Assembly (NCBI GenBank): GCA_963843575.1 | Contig: CAWJKZ010000009.1 | Span: forward strand, 64,001 to 128,000 | DNA length: 64,000 nt | Origin: an uncultured Acidobacteriota bacterium | Lineage (GTDB): Bacteria > Acidobacteriota > UBA6911 | Direction of reading: 5' to 3' | In this document: in pieces, positions 43,517 through 57,922 of the stretch | How positions within the stretch are numbered: position 1 is the stretch's first letter | How the letters are laid out: each line of letters opens with the position of its first letter | Program-made: the position numbers and the translations under genes | Notes under the pieces: generated by a model | The model's database searches: none | Told to the model about the DNA's origin: nothing | The model's input: the letters and a program-made list of their open reading frames with translations, nothing else

Positions 43517-44088
43517 ATGCCATCCCCGCACGAAGTCACTCATCTGCTCCAGGCCTGGTGCGGCGGCGACCAGGCGGCCCTGGATAAGCTCGTCCCTCTG
43601 GTTTATGACGAACTGCACAGGCTGGCCCACATCTACATGGTGCGCGAGCGGCCGGGCCACACGCTGCAGACCAGTGCCCTGGTCAATGAGGCCTATCTCC
43701 GGCTCATCGATGCCAACCAGGTTCAGTGGCAGGACCGCACCCACTTTTTTGCCATCTCGGCCAATGTGATGCGCCGCATCCTGGTGCAATTTGCGCGCTC
43801 GCGCGGTTCCCGGAAGCGGGGCGGCGGCGCCGGGCAAGTGGACCTCGACGAAGCGCTCATTCCGTCGCCGGAACGCGATGCCGACCTGATGGCGCTGGAC
43901 GACGCGCTGACTGCGCTGGCCGCGATCGATCCGCGGGAAGGGAGGGTGGTGGAGCTGCGTTTTTTCGGCGGAATGAGCGTGGACGAGACCGCGGAGGTCC
44001 TGCACTCTCGGGCATGATGGTGAAGCGGGATTGGAATCATGCGAAGGCGTGGTTGCTGCAGGAGTTGAAACGAGGGGCGCGCGGATGA
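43517..44088 (+). pseudogene. ECF sigma factor (kinase-associated TIGR02999-like), frameshifted near 44005
   Basis: EVTHLLQAW..ALDKLVPLVYDELHRLA, HTLQTSALVNEAYLRL and VVELRFFGG; VKRDWNHAKAWL in another frame; TGA overlaps the kinase ATG. Confidence 0.88.
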
Positions 44089-46333
44089 GTATCGATCGGT
44101 GGCAGCGGGTCAAGGAGATCTACAACTCGGCCCTGGATCTCGAGCCGGGAGGGCGCGAGGCCTACCTGCGAGAGGCCTGCGGGGGAGACCAGTCCCTGCG
44201 GCAAGAGGTCGAGGCTCTGCTGGCCAACCTGCCGGAGGCCGAGGGATTCATGAAGGATCCCGCAATGGAAGTGGCGGCCCGAGGTCTGGCGAAAGACCAG
44301 GAAAACGCGCTGGCGGGAGAGCTGGCGGGCCGCACCGTTTCGCATTACCGCATCATCGAAAAGATCGGCCAGGGGGGCATGGGAGAGGTATTCCTTGCCG
44401 AGGACACCTCCCTGCATCGCAAAGTCGCGCTGAAATTCCTGCCGCCGGAAATGCAGCGGGATCCCGTCGCCCGAAAGCGCTTCCTGCGGGAAGCCCATTC
44501 GGCCGCTGCGCTGGACAATCCCTACATCTGCAGCATCCATGAAGCCGGCGCGTTCGAAGGCAAGGACTTCATTGTAATGGAGTACGTGGACGGTCAAACA
44601 CTGATGGACAAGCTCCGTCGCCATCTGCCGCTGAAGCAGGTCCTGCAGATCGCCACAGAGGTTGCGGAGGCGCTGGAGGCGGCGCACGGGAAGGGGATCA
44701 TCCACCGGGACCTGAAGCCCGCGAACATCATGCTGGCGCAGACAGGTCATGCCAAGGTGATGGACTTCGGGCTGGCCAAGCAGTTGATTCCGCCCGGAGG
44801 AATCGGCAGCCAGGAAGAGTCGGTGACGGCGCTGACCCGAAGCGGGATGACGCTGGGGACTTTGGCCTACATGTCGCCGGAACAGTTACGGGGGGCGACC
44901 GTCGACGCCCGGTCGGACATTTTCTCGTTTGGCGTCGTTCTCTACGAGATGCTGGCCGGTGTTCATCCCTTCAAGAAGGAGACGGGGATGGACACAGCTG
45001 GCGCGATCCTCAACTCGGCGCCTCAGCCTGTTGGAGAGCTTCGCGCGGATACTCCCGCTCTGATCCAGCACATTGTGAGGAAGATGCTCGCCAAAGATCC
45101 GCAGGATCGGTATTCATCGATGCACGATGTAAAGACCGACCTGAAGGAGTTGATGGAGGAGTCGAATCGGCCGGCACCGGGGTTACGTCGAGGGCTTAAA
45201 CCTATGTGCTGGATTGCCGCAAGCGCATTGGTAGTCGTCGGCGTGGGAATCTGGACGTTTTTCATGTTCGCTCCTCGCGAGATGGCATTACCGCCACCGA
45301 GAATCGTGCCTGTAACAACGTCCGGTGGCGCAAATGCTGACCCGTCACTTTCACCGGATGGAAACTGGATCGCGTTTGTCTGGATGGGTGAAAAGCAGGA
45401 CAACTTGGACATCTACGTCAAAGAGTTGAATGGTCCCGGCTTCAATCGATTGACGACCGACCCGGCAGATGACTGGTGCCCCGCATGGTCTCCCGATGGC
45501 CTCCAGATCGCTTTCCTGCGATCCTCGGGGGATCGATGGATCCTGTACCTCATCAGCCCGTTGGGCGGTGGAGAAAGGAAATTGGCTGAGGTAGGCGGCG
45601 GAAAACTCAGCTGGTCGCCAGACGGAAAGAACATCGCGTTTAACGACAGGAAATCGCCGAAAGATCCGCCGAGTATCTGGTTGCTGTCGGTGGAAACGCT
45701 GGAAAAGAAGCAGATGACCGCCCCAGATGTAAGTTACTACGGCGACCATGGGCCGGCCTTTTCACCCAACGGTCGCTACCTTGCATTCGTCAGGTATATT
45801 GAGAGTTCAAGATCCGCGCTTTATGTCATGGATCTTCCCCGTGGAGAGCCAAGGCTTGTGACGGACTATAACTCTCCTGCGGGGCCATGCTGGACTGCCG
45901 ACAGCCGCGAGATTGTCTTCGCCACTGATCCTGTAACAGGAGAAACGCATTATGAAAGCCCGCCGCGTGATATCGGCATTTATACATTGAAGGCCGGCTG
46001 TCTGGCGACAGCCCAGGGGCTCTGCCCCTGGCCCCGGGATTTTGTGAGGCATGACTCTGGTGTCCGATAGATAAATGAGGCCTCTGACGATTGTTAGTCG
46101 CCAGAGGCCCGATGCACCATCGGCGCACCGTCGGCCTGACTATCCCTTGCCGGGTTGCGTCCCCGCAGAGCCCGACGCCGTTTCGTCAGGCGGGCCCAGT
46201 CTAGCACGTAGGAGATTGCAGTTTTGAAGATTTGGTCGCGAGCATAGAAGACATCATGAAAAGAAGACGCTCCAACAGCGGTAAGATTGGGATCGGTTCA
46301 AGACACCACTCAAAACCGCCAAAGGAGCGTCTG

Positions 46334-47386
46334 ATGAAAAAGTATATCGGCATGGATGTCCACAAAGCAACAACGGTGATAGCGGTTATCGGTGAGTCGG
46401 GCAAAAGGATTACTGACGGCGTGGTGGAAACATCCCCAGAGGCAATCCTGGATTTCATCAACGGGCAGCGCGGGGCGCTGCATGTCACTCTGGAGGAGTG
46501 CGCACAGGCGGCCTGGCTTTATGACATGCTCCGACCTTACGTCGCAGACGTGTTGGTCTGCGATCCACGCAAGATCGCCAAGGCAAGTAACAAGGCAGAC
46601 AAGTCCGATGCTGCGCGGCTGGCGGAGTTGCTTCGCACGAATGCGCTGACGCGAGTCTACCATGGCGAACAGAGCACTCTGGGATTGAAGGAACTCGCGC
46701 AGGGGTACGCCTGTTTAATCGAGGACAGGACCAGGGTCAAAAATCGCCTGAAGGCTTTGTTCCGGGCCCGCGGGATACCTTGTGAAGGCGCCGGAGTCTA
46801 CGGTCTTGAGGAACGGGAGGAGTGGCTGGCGAAACTGGACTCGGCAGCCGTGCGTGTCCGAGCTGGACGACTCTGCAATCAACTTGACTGCGCCGACTGG
46901 CTGTCGATAGAAGCGGAGCAGGAACTGACAGCTGAGGCACGGAAACATCCCGCTACAAAGATACTTCGCAGCATACCTGGAATCGGGTATGTGCGCGCCG
47001 CTGTAATCATCGGCGTCGCTGGTACTCCGCACCGATTTCGAACCAAGAGACAGTTCTGGAGTTACTGCGGGCTGGGTGTACGAACCGAGGCCAGTTCGGA
47101 ATACAAGATGCTCGCCGGGAAGGTCGTTCGATCCAACAGGCGGCCGCTTGTCCGCGGCTTGAATCAAAACTACAGCCGGGCGCTGAAGTCTGTGTTCAAG
47201 AGCGCGGCCAGGACTGTTGCCTCAGGACCGTGGCGGTCATATTTCGAGGCCATGATCGAAAACGGCACCCCTGAATCACTGGCATACCTGACTTTGGCGA
47301 GGAAGATTGCGTCGGTCACGCTGGCACTCTGGAAAAGAGGAGAACGCTATAGCCAAAAGAAACTGAAGATACCGCACGCGGCATGA
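46334..47386 (+). CDS. IS110 DEDD recombinase/transposase
   Basis: YIGMDVHK, TLEE and NKADKSDA (DEDD); LRSIPGIG, RF.TKRQFWSYCGL and LARK; AAGGAG RBS. Confidence 0.95.
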   Translation: MKKYIGMDVHKATTVIAVIGESGKRITDGVVETSPEAILDFINGQRGALHVTLEECAQAAWLYDMLRPYVADVLVCDPRKIAKASNKADKSDAARLAELLRTNALTRVYHGEQSTLGLKELAQGYACLIEDRTRVKNRLKALFRARGIPCEGAGVYGLEEREEWLAKLDSAAVRVRAGRLCNQLDCADWLSIEAEQELTAEARKHPATKILRSIPGIGYVRAAVIIGVAGTPHRFRTKRQFWSYCGLGVRTEASSEYKMLAGKVVRSNRRPLVRGLNQNYSRALKSVFKSAARTVASGPWRSYFEAMIENGTPESLAYLTLARKIASVTLALWKRGERYSQKKLKIPHAA

Positions 47387-47700
47387 AGCGTCTCGAGGAC
47401 CGACTGAGCAGGTCGGCAATGGTATTCAAATTGAAACCCGAACGAGACGCGAGGTCGAGGGTGAGTCTCAAGAACGCCGTTAGGCCCGGAGATGGAGTCT
47501 CCTTGAAACCATAGGCCCCCTCGCATGACCAAATAAAGCAATAGGCTTCCAAGTCTCAGATAGGACCATGGTCGGCAACACGGCCGCTGTGCTTTGAAAG
47601 TCTCGAACGGATTTGAATTCCGCTGCCCCTTGAACAGCCGGCTTCGTATGCATAGTGCATGCGTTATTCCGGAAATGATCGCAGGATCAGCAGGGCAGCA
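47387..47700 (+). ncRNA. Putative bridge/seek RNA in the 3' non-coding end (copy 1)
   Basis: Target-loop strands CGAGACG (47443-47449) and AACGCCGT (47473-47480); donor-loop strands ATAGGAC (47560-47566) and GTGC (47589-47592); each pair flanks an inner hairpin. RNA ends are unknown. Confidence 0.75.
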
Positions 47701-47771
47701 CTGAACGAGCGTTGGCTGGATGTCGTGGACCGAAAAAACGCGCCCTGTTCCTGGGGCGGAAGAGTTTGTCC

Positions 47772-47794
47772 TTGACATCCGCTTTCATAGGACG
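47772..47794 (+). promoter_or_regulatory. Outward -35 (TTGACA) completing a promoter on circularisation
   Basis: The circle junction reads TTGACA-17 bp-CATTAT, with the -10 contributed by the left end (45948-45953). Confidence 0.7.
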
Positions 47795-49087
47795 GCGTTG
47801 TGGCGGATCTTCGTGGACGGCGGAGAGCCTCGCAGAGTCCCGGCACGTGGCGAGCGGGTTCATCAGCCCACGGTCAGCCGGAATCGTCTGGCGTACCGAA
47901 GCCTAACCTATAACTCGGATATTTGGAGAATGGAGCTGACCGGGCAGGGGGCGATGAAACCGCCATCGAAGCCTTTATTCTCCTGGTCGTCAGGTGAGAT
48001 AGACCAGCGTATTTCGCCGGACGGAAGCAGGATTGCCTTCGCGTCCGACAGTTCAGGAAGCTTGGAGATCTGGGTTTGCCATGCCGACGGCACAAAGCCG
48101 ATGAAGCGCACCGAAATGAAAGCCGGAAGCACCGGCAGTCCAAACTGGTCTCCCGACGGCAAGAACATCGCTTTCGATTCCACCAAATCGGGGAATGGCG
48201 ATATTTATGTGGTCAGCGCGGAAGGAGGGCCGGTACGCCGCATCACAACTGATCCAACGGAAGAGGTGGTCCCCCGCTGGTCACGGGACGGTCGCTGGAT
48301 CTACTTCGGCTCGAACAGGAGCGGGACCTGGCAGATCTGGAAGATGCCGTCCGATGGAGGCAAGGCGATTCAGATCACCAAGGACGGAGGCATGGTGGCC
48401 CGCGAATCAGCCGATGGGCAGCTCGTGTACTACCATGGTTACTATAATCTTCAGAAAAAAGGTGTGTGGCGAGTGCCGGTATCGGACGGCCAGGAGACGC
48501 TCGTACTGGACAAAGAGATTGACCCCCATAATTGGGATTTGACAGACCGGGGCATCTACTTCATTGATGGCAGTGGCACCGTCAGCCTATGGCGACCATA
48601 TGCTTCTACGATTTTGCGACCCGGTCCATAAGGACTCTGACTCCTGTCCATGGTGCTCCAGGATTTGTGGGTAGATGAGGGTTTGAGCGTCTCGCCCGAC
48701 GGTAAGTGGCTTCTCTACTCCGGTGGGATCTTCACTTCCGACATCATGATGATCGACAACTTCCGCTGACAGAAGTTATCCACCCATCGCGATCCGTCAA
48801 ATCAGCATGCAGCAGAAGGACGAAACACACTCGATCGGTCTTTGCGCCCAAGGCCTCCGATCGGCTGCCCATCTCGGGTCCTCAGGTTTCTTGGATCGTT
48901 GCTGTCCCGAAGTCCTGTTCACGGAGATCATGCCCGCCAGCCTGAGGCCCCCACCGGGGTCCCGGTCATCTCCGCGAACGCCGTCTCACGTTCTTAACGA
49001 CCGGCGACGACGCGTCAGACTATTTTCCGTCTATGGCTTTGCCACAGGCCGAAAGCAAGCTTTCCTCAATCGCTTTTCCGCTCGATG

Positions 49088-55876: not shown

Positions 55877-56075
55877 CTAGTAATGTAAATACCAACAAGG
55901 GCCTTCGAAGTCCCGTTCGAGGAGATGACTGCCACTGGCTGTCGCTCACCTTGCCCAGCGAGGGGTGATTGACGCGAACGCCGTCCTATGAAAGCGGATG
56001 TCAAGGACAAACTCTTCCGCCCCAGGAACAGGGCGCGTTTTTTCGGTCCACGACATCCAGCCAACGCTCATTCAG

Positions 56076-56388
56076 TGCTGCCCTGCTGATCCTGCGACAC
56101 TTCCGGAATAACGCATGCACTATGCATACGAAGCCGGCTGTTCAAGGGGCAGCGGAATTCAAATCCGTTCGAGACTTTCAAAGCACAGCGGCCGTGTTGC
56201 CGACCATGGTCCTATCTGAGACTTGGAAGCCTATTGCTTTATTTGGTCATGCGAGGGGGCCTATGGTTTCAAGGAGACTCCATCTCCGGGCCTAACGGCG
56301 TTCTTGAGACTCACCCTCGACCTCGCGTCTCGTTCGGGTTTCAATTTGAATACCATTGCCGACCTGCTCAGTCGGTCCTCGAGACGCT
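56076..56388 (-). ncRNA. Putative bridge/seek RNA (copy 2)
   Basis: Same guide segments at 56326-56332, 56295-56302 and 56209-56215. Confidence 0.72.
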
Positions 56389-57441
56389 TCATGCCGCGTG
56401 CGGTATCTTCAGTTTCTTTTGGCTATAGCGTTCTCCTCTTTTCCAGAGTGCCAGCGTGACCGACGCAATCTTCCTCGCCAAAGTCAGGTATGCCAGTGAT
56501 TCAGGGGTGCCGTTTTCGATCATGGCCTCGAAATATGACCGCCACGGTCCTGAGGCAACAGTCCTGGCCGCGCTCTTGAACACAGACTTCAGCGCCCGGC
56601 TGTAGTTTTGATTCAAGCCGCGGACAAGCGGCCGCCTGTTGGATCGAACGACCTTCCCGGCGAGCATCTTGTATTCCGAACTGGCCTCGGTTCGTACACC
56701 CAGCCCGCAGTAACTCCAGAACTGTCTCTTGGTTCGAAATCGGTGCGGAGTACCAGCGACGCCGATGATTACAGCGGCGCGCACATACCCGATTCCAGGT
56801 ATGCTGCGAAGTATCTTTGTAGCGGGATGTTTCCGTGCCTCAGCTGTCAGTTCCTGCTCCGCTTCTATCGACAGCCAGTCGGCGCAGTCAAGTTGATTGC
56901 AGAGTCGTCCAGCTCGGACACGCACGGCTGCCGAGTCCAGTTTCGCCAGCCACTCCTCCCGTTCCTCAAGACCGTAGACTCCGGCGCCTTCACAAGGTAT
57001 CCCGCGGGCCCGGAACAAAGCCTTCAGGCGATTTTTGACCCTGGTCCTGTCCTCGATTAAACAGGCGTACCCCTGCGCGAGTTCCTTCAATCCCAGAGTG
57101 CTCTGTTCGCCATGGTAGACTCGCGTCAGCGCATTCGTGCGAAGCAACTCCGCCAGCCGCGCAGCATCGGACTTGTCTGCCTTGTTACTTGCCTTGGCGA
57201 TCTTGCGTGGATCGCAGACCAACACGTCTGCGACGTAAGGTCGGAGCATGTCATAAAGCCAGGCCGCCTGTGCGCACTCCTCCAGAGTGACATGCAGCGC
57301 CCCGCGCTGCCCGTTGATGAAATCCAGGATTGCCTCTGGGGATGTTTCCACCACGCCGTCAGTAATCCTTTTGCCCGACTCACCGATAACCGCTATCACC
57401 GTTGTTGCTTTGTGGACATCCATGCCGATATACTTTTTCAT
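56389..57441 (-). CDS. IS110 DEDD recombinase/transposase
   Basis: Same protein as 46334-47386. Confidence 0.95.
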   Translation of the reverse strand: MKKYIGMDVHKATTVIAVIGESGKRITDGVVETSPEAILDFINGQRGALHVTLEECAQAAWLYDMLRPYVADVLVCDPRKIAKASNKADKSDAARLAELLRTNALTRVYHGEQSTLGLKELAQGYACLIEDRTRVKNRLKALFRARGIPCEGAGVYGLEEREEWLAKLDSAAVRVRAGRLCNQLDCADWLSIEAEQELTAEARKHPATKILRSIPGIGYVRAAVIIGVAGTPHRFRTKRQFWSYCGLGVRTEASSEYKMLAGKVVRSNRRPLVRGLNQNYSRALKSVFKSAARTVASGPWRSYFEAMIENGTPESLAYLTLARKIASVTLALWKRGERYSQKKLKIPHAA

Positions 57442-57922
57442 CAGACGCTCCTTTGGCGGTTTTGAGTGGTGTCTTGAACCGATCCCAATCTTACCGCTGT
57501 TGGAGCGTCTTCTTTTCATGATGTCTTCTATGCTCGCGACCAAATCTTCAAAACTGCAATCTCCTACGTGCTAGACTGGGCCCGCCTGACGAAACGGCGT
57601 CGGGCTCTGCGGGGACGCAACCCGGCAAGGGATAGTCAGGCCGACGGTGCGCCGATGGTGCATCGGGCCTCTGGCGACTAACAATCGTCAGAGGCCTCAT
57701 TTATCTATCGGACACCAGAGTCATGCCTCACAAAATCCCGGGGCCAGGGGCAGAGCCCCTGGGCTGTCGCCAGACAGCCGGCCTTCAATGTATAAATGCC
57801 GATATCACGCGGCGGGCTTTCATAATGCGTTTCGGAGTCTCTTGTCATGAATTAAGCTGTAAGTAGTTGTTCCCGCTGAGGTAAAATGACATTATCAAGA
57901 GTGGTTCGAGGCGGAGATACAC

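Follow-up and report, generated by a model that had tools for sequence, protein, structure and literature searches.

A predicted small RNA cassette in the left end of an IS1111-type element is shared by several families of insertion sequences

We analysed a structured non-coding module located in the left end (LE) of an insertion sequence (IS) of the IS1111 type (IS110 family), residing in a 64,000-nt stretch of DNA of an uncultured Acidobacteriota bacterium (positions 64,001 to 128,000 of contig CAWJKZ010000009.1, assembly GCA_963843575.1; this whole stretch is referred to as the window). The module is probably a portable, insulated small RNA (sRNA) cassette, acquired by one subclade of IS1111-type elements, which would limit expression of the transposase and would not act as a second guide. 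Comparison of related copies indicates that at least four other IS lineages (ISL3, IS21, rve/IS481-like and another group of the IS110 family) carry the predicted cassette within their terminal repeats. IS-borne sRNAs are of a known kind; what would be new is one conserved fold common to several IS families.

An earlier sequence-only reading of this DNA had offered several explanations for the module, i.e. a second guide RNA, a regulatory RNA, a decoy or self-target of the recombinase, or a structured single-stranded DNA (ssDNA). Of these, the regulatory RNA has survived as a probable sRNA gene, located on the strand opposite to the one on which it had been drawn.

The predicted RNA and its strand

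The minus strand is the one that most likely folds, and we infer an RNA of this polarity, about 120 nt long, as the functional product (Table 1). In a minus-strand alignment of 80 copies (A3), 92.9% of the 1982 helix cells (P1, P2, P3 and P4) are paired. Changes on both sides were found in 15 of the 25 base pairs, with 184 such cells compared with 45.5 in shuffled alignments. The covariation score reached 0.364, against 0.168 after shuffling (0 of 500 shuffles scored as high) and no more than 0.069 with the partners slid. A conserved secondary structure with compensatory changes is what is expected of a structured RNA family, and the variants in the window's own genome behave in the same way, their stems being kept paired by compensatory changes (e.g. 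CGGG/CCCG to CAGG/CCTG).

Covariation was also examined in an alignment of 84 copies (A2), from which eight of the 80 metagenome loci described below were left out, as they do not contain the full 180-nt span (L118, L121, L127, L151, L161, L163, L173 and L191), together with L024, L027 and L112, which failed the span or pattern test. Alignment A3 excludes L125 and L137, L140 (truncated) and L177 (identical to L153). L125 and L137 carry an 11-nt internal duplication (GAGCCTGAGTC) in the module loop and stem, and are probably damaged copies.

The assignment to the minus strand relies on several signals. The 80 aligned copies contain 196 G.U cells when read as minus-strand RNA and 44 when read as plus-strand RNA. 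On the plus strand, i.e. the one considered in the sequence-only reading, A.C and C.A mismatches outnumber G.U pairs in the helix cells of the 84-copy alignment (60 and 38, respectively), which indicates the complement as the folded strand. Read on the minus strand, the apical loop is the GNRA tetraloop GGGA; the plus-strand reading gives UCCC. Moreover, 61 of the 84 copies have, on the minus strand, a hairpin of 8 bp or more with four or more T residues within the next 8 nt, and no copy has one on the plus strand. Hairpin H1 with its T-run, found on the minus strand only, is the intrinsic terminator expected of an independent sRNA gene. In 68 of 88 copies a TAnnnT box (31 different hexamers) keeps one phase, 5-6 nt away from a reference point that immediately precedes P1, and in 36 of those 68 a TTG lies 16-18 nt further upstream. 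Taken together, these features suggest that the cassette is probably an sRNA gene complete in itself and encoded on the opposite strand. A role as structured ssDNA is disfavoured by the wobble pairs and by the promoter and terminator signals.

Folded alone, the minus-strand segment 46191-46069 adopts the consensus fold as its minimum free energy (MFE) structure (-66.6 kcal/mol, z -5.36, 34% of the ensemble). The same architecture is obtained for copies taken from ISL3 and IS21 contexts, again folded alone. In a 211-nt minus-strand stretch, the single-sequence MFE structure has another local hairpin at the 5' end. The heptamers GCCTGAC (46134-46140) and GTCAGGC (46185-46191), previously recognised as closing an internal loop, were found in place. 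The loop itself, described as 10x10, is 8x8 (GAAACGGC over AAGGGAUA), with an inner stem longer by two pairs; at one of these the window copy has a G.U wobble on the minus strand, corresponding to a C.A mismatch when the plus strand is read. A further stem reported at 46079-46109 is real and extends over 46078-46110. It had also been noticed that GGGCTCTGC (46017-46025) is complementary to GCAGAGCCC (46165-46173); this is correct, and the pairing is present in the MFE structure of the plus strand. The apical sequence is invariant and the left hairpin is missing in many family members, which makes covariation uninformative for this alternative pairing.

Could the module nevertheless act in cis on the plus strand, as part of the transposase mRNA leader (or of the 3' untranslated region in other ISs), e.g. 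as an attenuator or stability element, with no separate sRNA? The plus strand of the module also folds well (z -5.31), it would be 85.2% paired in these helices, the conserved unit includes a plus-strand terminator-like site and helix A (see below), and the hairpin over the Shine-Dalgarno (SD) sequence of the transposase gene shows that the leader is structured for control. We consider this explanation unlikely, given the bias of the wobble pairs, the UCCC tetraloop and the lack of any T-run after H1 on that strand. In addition, a plus-strand element does not explain the phased TAnnnT box, and the side of the transposase gene on which the module lies (5' or 3') differs among loci.

A peptide product was considered and rejected. 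The plus strand contains an open reading frame (ORF) of 50 codons (46075-46227), which in 7 of 81 copies (L134, L135, L153, L154, L166, L177 and L195) is interrupted by an in-frame TAG at the third codon of TATCCCTTG; the covariation of the stems would scramble its product too.

Table 1. Features of the IS1111-type element and its predicted sRNA cassette (positions in the window)
Feature	Position	Strand	Remarks
LE	45948-46333	+	in order: terminus, hairpin 45996-46013, plus-strand terminator-like site, sRNA cassette, spacer, SD-sequestering hairpin
Terminator-like hairpin	46016-46045	+	GGGGCTCTGCCCCTGGCCCC then GGGATTTTGT; faces transcription entering from the left end; consensus scan
Conserved left arm	46036-46070	+	GGGATTTTGTGAGGCATGACTCTGGTGTCCGATAG; 3' part pairs with 46116-46127 around H1 (helix A)
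Predicted sRNA, 123 nt	46191 to 46069	-	covariation, wobble bias, fold, terminator polarity
-10-like TAGACT	46198-46203	-	predicted sRNA start near 46191; -35 weak in window copy
P1	46191-46185 with 46140-46134	-	predicted sRNA helix
5' loop	46184-46177	-	GAAACGGC; predicted sRNA
Segment identical to target top strand	46175-46184	-	GAAACGGCGT; sRNA 5' loop and first two bases of P2
P2	46176-46171 with 46154-46149	-	predicted sRNA helix
P3	46167-46164 with 46159-46156	-	closes GGGA tetraloop 46163-46160
3' loop	46148-46141	-	AAGGGAUA; predicted sRNA
P4	46129-46122 with 46118-46111	-	predicted sRNA helix
Terminator hairpin H1	46110-46078	-	listed by terminator scan of window
U-rich tail	46077-46069	-	3' end of predicted sRNA
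SD-sequestering hairpin of transposase gene	46265-46332	+	AGACGCTCC (46265-46273) with GGAGCGTCT (46324-46332); ATG 46334
Target-binding loop of seekRNA/bridge RNA in right end (RE)	47456-47523	+	closed by CGAGGG/CCCTCG
Top-strand guide	47473-47481	+	AACGCCGTT; complementary to right flank ACGGCGTT
Bottom-strand guide	47505-47509	+	GAAAC; identical to left flank GAAACG
TTGACA	47772-47777	+	17 nt (47778-47794) from CATTAT (45948-45953) on joined circle
IS copy 2, near-identical	55984-57827	-	cassette predicts sRNA on plus strand, ~57584-57706

Distribution of the cassette among insertion sequences

The LE module (approximately 46006-46203) is not restricted to the window element. An exact search with a 25-base pattern detected its core in at least 120 metagenome stretches; the sample analysed comprises 80 loci among the matches listed and is biased towards conserved members, the pattern positions (the 3' loop AGGGAUA and the apical hairpin) being invariant by construction. 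A transposase gene is present in 51 of these 80 loci: ISL3 (16), rve-type (12), IS21 with IstA/IstB (11), other IS110-family elements (7) and elements of the window type (5). Family labels were assigned with Pfam for 10 representative neighbour proteins and for the rest by tblastn to those representatives. The sequence-only reading had proposed looking for the module in other IS families, and there it is indeed found. An association with DEDD transposases only, as expected of a bridge RNA, is not observed, since 39 of the 51 transposase-linked loci are of the ISL3, IS21 or rve type.

In these elements the module lies inside the terminal repeats: between the left inverted repeat and the transposase gene or between this gene and the right inverted repeat (ISL3), between the transposase gene and the right inverted repeat (rve-type, with TGTG...CACA repeats at -1514 and +192), or between istB and the terminal repeats (IS21). 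The predicted sRNA is encoded on the strand opposite to the transposase gene in 45 of the 51 loci. Four loci (L119, L125, L156 and L158) contain ISL3-type terminal inverted repeats, about 430-480 bp apart, around the cassette only, with no transposase gene; these are putative miniature derivatives that have kept the cassette.

The latter structures, as well as the existence of solo copies lacking a transposase gene, may bring to mind a nested miniature inverted-repeat transposable element (MITE) with inverted arms of about 35 bp, inserted into several ISs and conserved through transposase binding and recent spread, not through RNA function. Both arms are in fact present in inverted orientation, approximately 235 nt apart, in about 12 of the 80 loci. 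We nevertheless regard this explanation as very unlikely. Most copies keep one arm only, the arm boundaries vary and no target-site duplications were noticed. In addition, the interior stems covary freely while the loops are fixed, which is not predicted for a protein-bound inverted repeat, and the module sequences cluster by IS family. A MITE would, moreover, be compatible with an sRNA cargo, and is therefore no true alternative to the favoured explanation, the sRNA cassette.

The clustering by IS family was assessed on a tree of 81 columns, poorly resolved, on which 16 changes of family label were counted (minimum 4, shuffled mean 36). This suggests inheritance within IS lineages combined with a limited number of transfers between them. 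Within the lineage of the window element the module seems to be an addition. At about 50% identity of the transposase, 78 of 80 relatives do not have it (nhmmer), and nine of ten inspected relatives have an LE of about 95 nt starting with the same terminus; its absence from most relatives points to acquisition by one subclade. Many of the module-less relatives with a short LE (L033-L084) are located directly after a GC-rich hairpin ending ...GGGGCACG, which suggests that they use targets similar to repetitive extragenic palindromes (REP-like targets).

Among 50 other genomes of the same bacterial family, a DNA search matched LE positions ~59-247 in 12, and only three of 16 loci examined from those genomes had a related transposase gene. 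Of 401 sampled genomes of the phylum, at least two contain the exact pattern and at least three were positive by blastn (with two candidates scored per genome). The PLSDB plasmids gave no blastn match to the module and the IMG/VR viral contigs no exact-pattern match.

Searches for a described counterpart were negative within their scope. In the window segment 45700-48000, none of the 4227 families of Rfam 15 gave a hit better than E = 3.7, and the three hits obtained, of 12.8-18.3 bits, were all far below the gathering scores of 56.8-80. Eight loci with complete units yielded no Rfam hit at E <= 1. The 18-nt core, also as RNA and as reverse complement, was found in the main text of no paper. 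A literature search for structured or antisense RNAs of ISL3, IS21 and IS110 elements brought up unrelated genome papers only, and in its available part a 2026 preprint on noncoding space mentions only the IS110 bridge RNAs.

The target match of the internal loop

The sequence-only reading had drawn attention to the plus-strand loop segment ACGCCGTTTC (46175-46184), which is, as stated there, the exact reverse complement of the target 10-mer GAAACGGCGT. Within the window the 10-mer occurs in the two IS copies only (46175-46184, minus strand; 57591-57600, plus strand). The proposal that this loop belongs to a second guide is not supported. The 5' loop GAAACGGAG, whose position was free in the search pattern, is found on the minus strand of 46 of the 80 copies, across IS families. 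The family consensus of the 10-mer is GAAACGGAGU, of which the window copy represents nine of ten bases plus one substitution. The loop of the window copy (GAAACGGCG) is present in three of the 80 copies, and the other two (L168 and L190) adjoin ISL3 transposase genes. Relatives with the targets AAGACAC/CATCCCTAAG (L136) or CACATCG/GGACTTC (L178) keep the loop TCCCTTTC or TCTGTTTC. Elements with different flanks thus share the LE loop TCCGTTTC, TCTGTTTC or TCCCTTTC, and the covariation with the target that characterizes the guides of bridge RNAs or seekRNAs is not seen. Conversely, in the variants of the window's own genome the matching strand drifts (ACGCCG to ACTCCG, ACTCGG or GCTCCG) and the target stays ACGGCGTT. 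A loop constant whatever the target or IS family is the outcome that had been named beforehand as speaking against a guide, and the match to the target appears to be mostly conserved family sequence, not a programmable guide.

Target choice can be explained without the LE, since the guides in the right end (RE) track the flanks. The target-binding loop of the RE lies in the non-coding region (NCR) downstream of the transposase gene, and its top-strand guide precedes the bottom-strand guide, the order described for IS1111-type seekRNAs (PMC11187229). Covariation of the RE guides with the right and left flanks was observed in six elements, i.e. the window element, L011, L031, L136, L178 and L182. 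The second type of element in this genome has the guide GATAC and the flank GATACG. L136 has the guides CCTAAGGGATGG and AAGACAC and the flanks CCATCCCTAAG and AAGACACG; in L178 guide GAAGTCCCG corresponds to flank CGGGACTTC, and in L182 both guide and flank read GATCACG. The expectation that the LE loop would covary with both the target and the guide was therefore not borne out, as the loop is constant and the RE guides change.

A donor-binding loop was considered as well and rejected, because a comparison by eye of both loop strands with the two strands of the circle junction (...CATAGGA-CG-CATTATG...) revealed no match. In the rve-type loci L129, L142 and L181 we noticed, at about +60 to +130 from the module, a hairpin composed of tandem CCGTTTC/GAAACGG units and followed by a T-run; its heptamer is that of the conserved loop of the module.

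A different explanation of the match is a lineage-specific decoy or self-target, with one substitution making the loop identical to the top strand of the target in the three identical genome copies. As a decoy, the sRNA would pair with the top-strand guide of the RE (AACGGCGU with ACGCCGUU, 8 bp) and hold it back; as a self-target, the DNA at 46175-46184 would be a near-cognate insertion site. The exactness of the match (about 0.001 expected for a stretch of such length) and the placement of the substitution exactly where the match is completed are in line with such a role, as is the match of nine of ten bases in L031, a close relative with the same target. The same substitution is, however, present in L168 and L190, beside ISL3 transposase genes which have no such guide, and the loops of the type-2 copies L011 and L012, whose target is nearly the same, match in only eight and six of ten positions. 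This explanation is further opposed by the absence of nested LE insertions in all six genome copies and by the DNA site fitting only 10 of the 12 bases read by the guides (GAAACGGCGTCG versus GAAACGGCGTTC). On balance, a decoy or self-target seems improbable, even though the substitution could have been selected for the 8-bp pairing with the RE guide.

The element and its insertion site

Copy 1 of the element occupies positions 45948-47792 (plus strand) and encodes a transposase of 350 aa (ORF 46334-47386, plus strand) with the Pfam domains DEDD_Tnp_IS110 and Transposase_20. The LE (45948-46333, 386 nt) and the RE (47387-47792, 406 nt) are both long, in agreement with the sequence-only reading. 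Its remark that described elements usually have one long end holds approximately, with the exception of 26 of more than 350 IS110-family entries of ISfinder, which have two longer NCRs (PMC11187229). In the window element the second long end holds what appears to be acquired cargo.

An alignment of the copies and the DNA flanking them fixed the ends. At the left junction the sequence is ...GAAACG/CATTATGAAAGC, at the right one ...GCTTTCATAGGA/CG/GCGTT, and the core CG is present at each (45946-45947 and 47793-47794). The subterminal inverted repeats TTATGAAAGC (45950-45959) and GCTTTCATA (47781-47789) are of a kind typical of the IS1111 group. The element interrupts a Pkinase+PD40 gene (44031-45947 and 47795-48631), PD40 representing WD40-like beta-propeller repeats. 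Once the element is removed, the two parts of the gene rejoin in frame via a single ACG copy.

The genome contains six copies with different flanks and the same ends, of which three are identical (two of them within the window), two have 84% identity in the LE and 87% in the protein, and one has 70% protein identity. Copy 2 of the window (~55984) and the type-2 copy L011 have a common right flank (GCGTTCGCGTCAATCA) and different left flanks, which points to related copies of a repeated sequence as their insertion sites. In the third variant of the same genome (L013), the RE is broken right after the top-strand guide by an IS with a DUF772 transposase domain, and this copy has probably lost its seekRNA.

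Neighbouring control elements in the left end

The cassette looks insulated, being equipped with a putative terminator for each direction: its own minus-strand terminator and a plus-strand terminator-like hairpin with GGGATTTT on the side towards the IS end. The latter unit is also found 3' of the istB stop codon in L124, and mirrored at the right end of the rve-type loci L128, L185 and L149. Helix A, formed by the conserved left arm, shows 13-31 double changes per pair; an inverted second arm across the cassette is the feature mentioned above for about 12 of the 80 metagenome loci.

Closer to the transposase gene, all nine pairs of the SD-sequestering hairpin are formed in the window copy. 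An SD-ATG can be recognised in ten clade members, and all ten retain seven to nine of the nine pairs; the changes in L013 and L182 are compensatory. At the opposite end of the element, the TTGACA hexamer together with CATTAT constitutes a candidate junction promoter on the excised circle, which would read through the whole LE. The concept of such a promoter is described in the part of PMC12288879 available to us.

A proposed mechanism

Transcription of the predicted sRNA would start about 7 nt after the phased TAnnnT box. In the folded RNA, P1 would be followed by the 8x8 internal loop, by P2 and by a hairpin with the GGGA (GNRA) tetraloop at its tip; P4 would come next, and the RNA would end at H1 and the U-run. 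Transcripts of the interrupted host gene, or those started at the circle junction promoter, may run into the LE, and the sRNA would be transcribed against them. Together with the plus-strand hairpin 46016-46045, the sRNA could limit the production of transposase from such transcripts, either by antisense pairing or by promoter collision, with the SD hairpin 46265-46332 adding translational control. The sRNA may also bind a conserved partner in trans, which we propose because the loops and the tetraloop are invariant.

Several observations weigh against this model. A sigma-70 promoter scan of 45850-46450 found no promoter, the -35 region of the window copy is poor, and its U-tail is weak (CAUUUAUCU). 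Helix A covaries in spite of the position of its left arm past the predicted 3' end of the sRNA, so that some longer or plus-strand RNA, or DNA, must also fold. The antisense mechanism agrees with the 5' contexts, and less well with those, as in IS21, in which the cassette follows the transposase gene and a plus-strand terminator lies between them. Owing to the relatedness of the copies, the events behind the counts (e.g. 45 of 51, 68 of 88) are not independent. Finally, the 10-mer is expected 0.19 times per window (shuffles) and about 0.001 times per 386-nt stretch, which makes a chance match to the target unlikely.

A bolder version, to which we assign little probability, would see here an undescribed family of sRNAs of about 120 nt, with a promoter and terminator of their own, a shared cargo of unrelated ISs acting in trans on a conserved partner. 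In the window element one substitution would have made the loop a perfect mimic of the target, which would pair with the seekRNA guide and slow down RNA-guided transposition as a natural anti-guide.

Relation to known systems and significance

IS-borne antisense RNAs and structures sequestering the ribosome-binding site limit transposase synthesis, including that from read-through transcripts. RNA-OUT of IS10 is an antisense RNA that overlaps the start codon and is IS-specific. In contrast, about 140 nt lie between the sRNA predicted here and the ATG downstream of it, and the fold of this sRNA is common to several families.

The nearest described cases come from ISPpu9 and ISPpu10 (IS110 family), as far as the available part of PMC12288879 goes. 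The antisense sRNAs Asr9 and Asr10, described alongside a structured 5' untranslated region, were shown there by experiment; they resemble the present system in the IS110-family host element, the long structured leader and the location of an opposite-strand sRNA upstream of the transposase gene. They are, however, IS-specific, while the module analysed here is known from sequence alone, has its own terminator and represents one fold across unrelated ISs. The same source describes Ssr9/MITEPpu9, an sRNA gene hitchhiking with ISPpu9; in a few strains of Pseudomonas putida this gene lies downstream of one IS, and it is moved by the transposase of that IS. Like our cassette, it is a modular sRNA gene found in IS copies and in solo or miniature units, and may be selfish. 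The cassette differs in accompanying at least five IS lineages from many environments, a distinction based on the description given in that source.

The resemblance to seekRNAs and bridge RNAs (Siddiquee 2024, PMC11187229; Durrant 2024, of the latter the available part) concerns the long non-coding end of an IS110-family element, the order stem, internal loop, stem, and a loop strand matching the target. Unlike these guides, the loop of the module does not covary with the target, and the module also accompanies DDE transposases, which use no guide RNA, and is probably encoded on the opposite strand; the true seekRNA of the window element is in the RE, not in the LE module. Second RNAs have been reported in IS110 transposition, and in the available parts of the two sources (bioRxiv 10.1101/2025.10.25.684509; PMC13626964) they are products of the bridge-RNA locus itself.

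For the field of bridge RNAs and seekRNAs, our observations are a caution: a perfect 10-nt match to the target in an end of an IS110-family element need not be a guide, and in this instance this became visible only by comparing relatives. One fold occurring in ISL3, IS21, rve-type and IS110-family elements would make the module a new candidate RNA family. Its presence in elements with different transposition chemistries may reflect a common need, such as insulation from outside transcription, control of copy number or the use of a shared host factor. If the target mimicry of the window copy were functional, the predicted sRNA would represent a naturally occurring RNA that inhibits an RNA-guided recombinase, and could be of practical interest for controlling editors of the bridge type.

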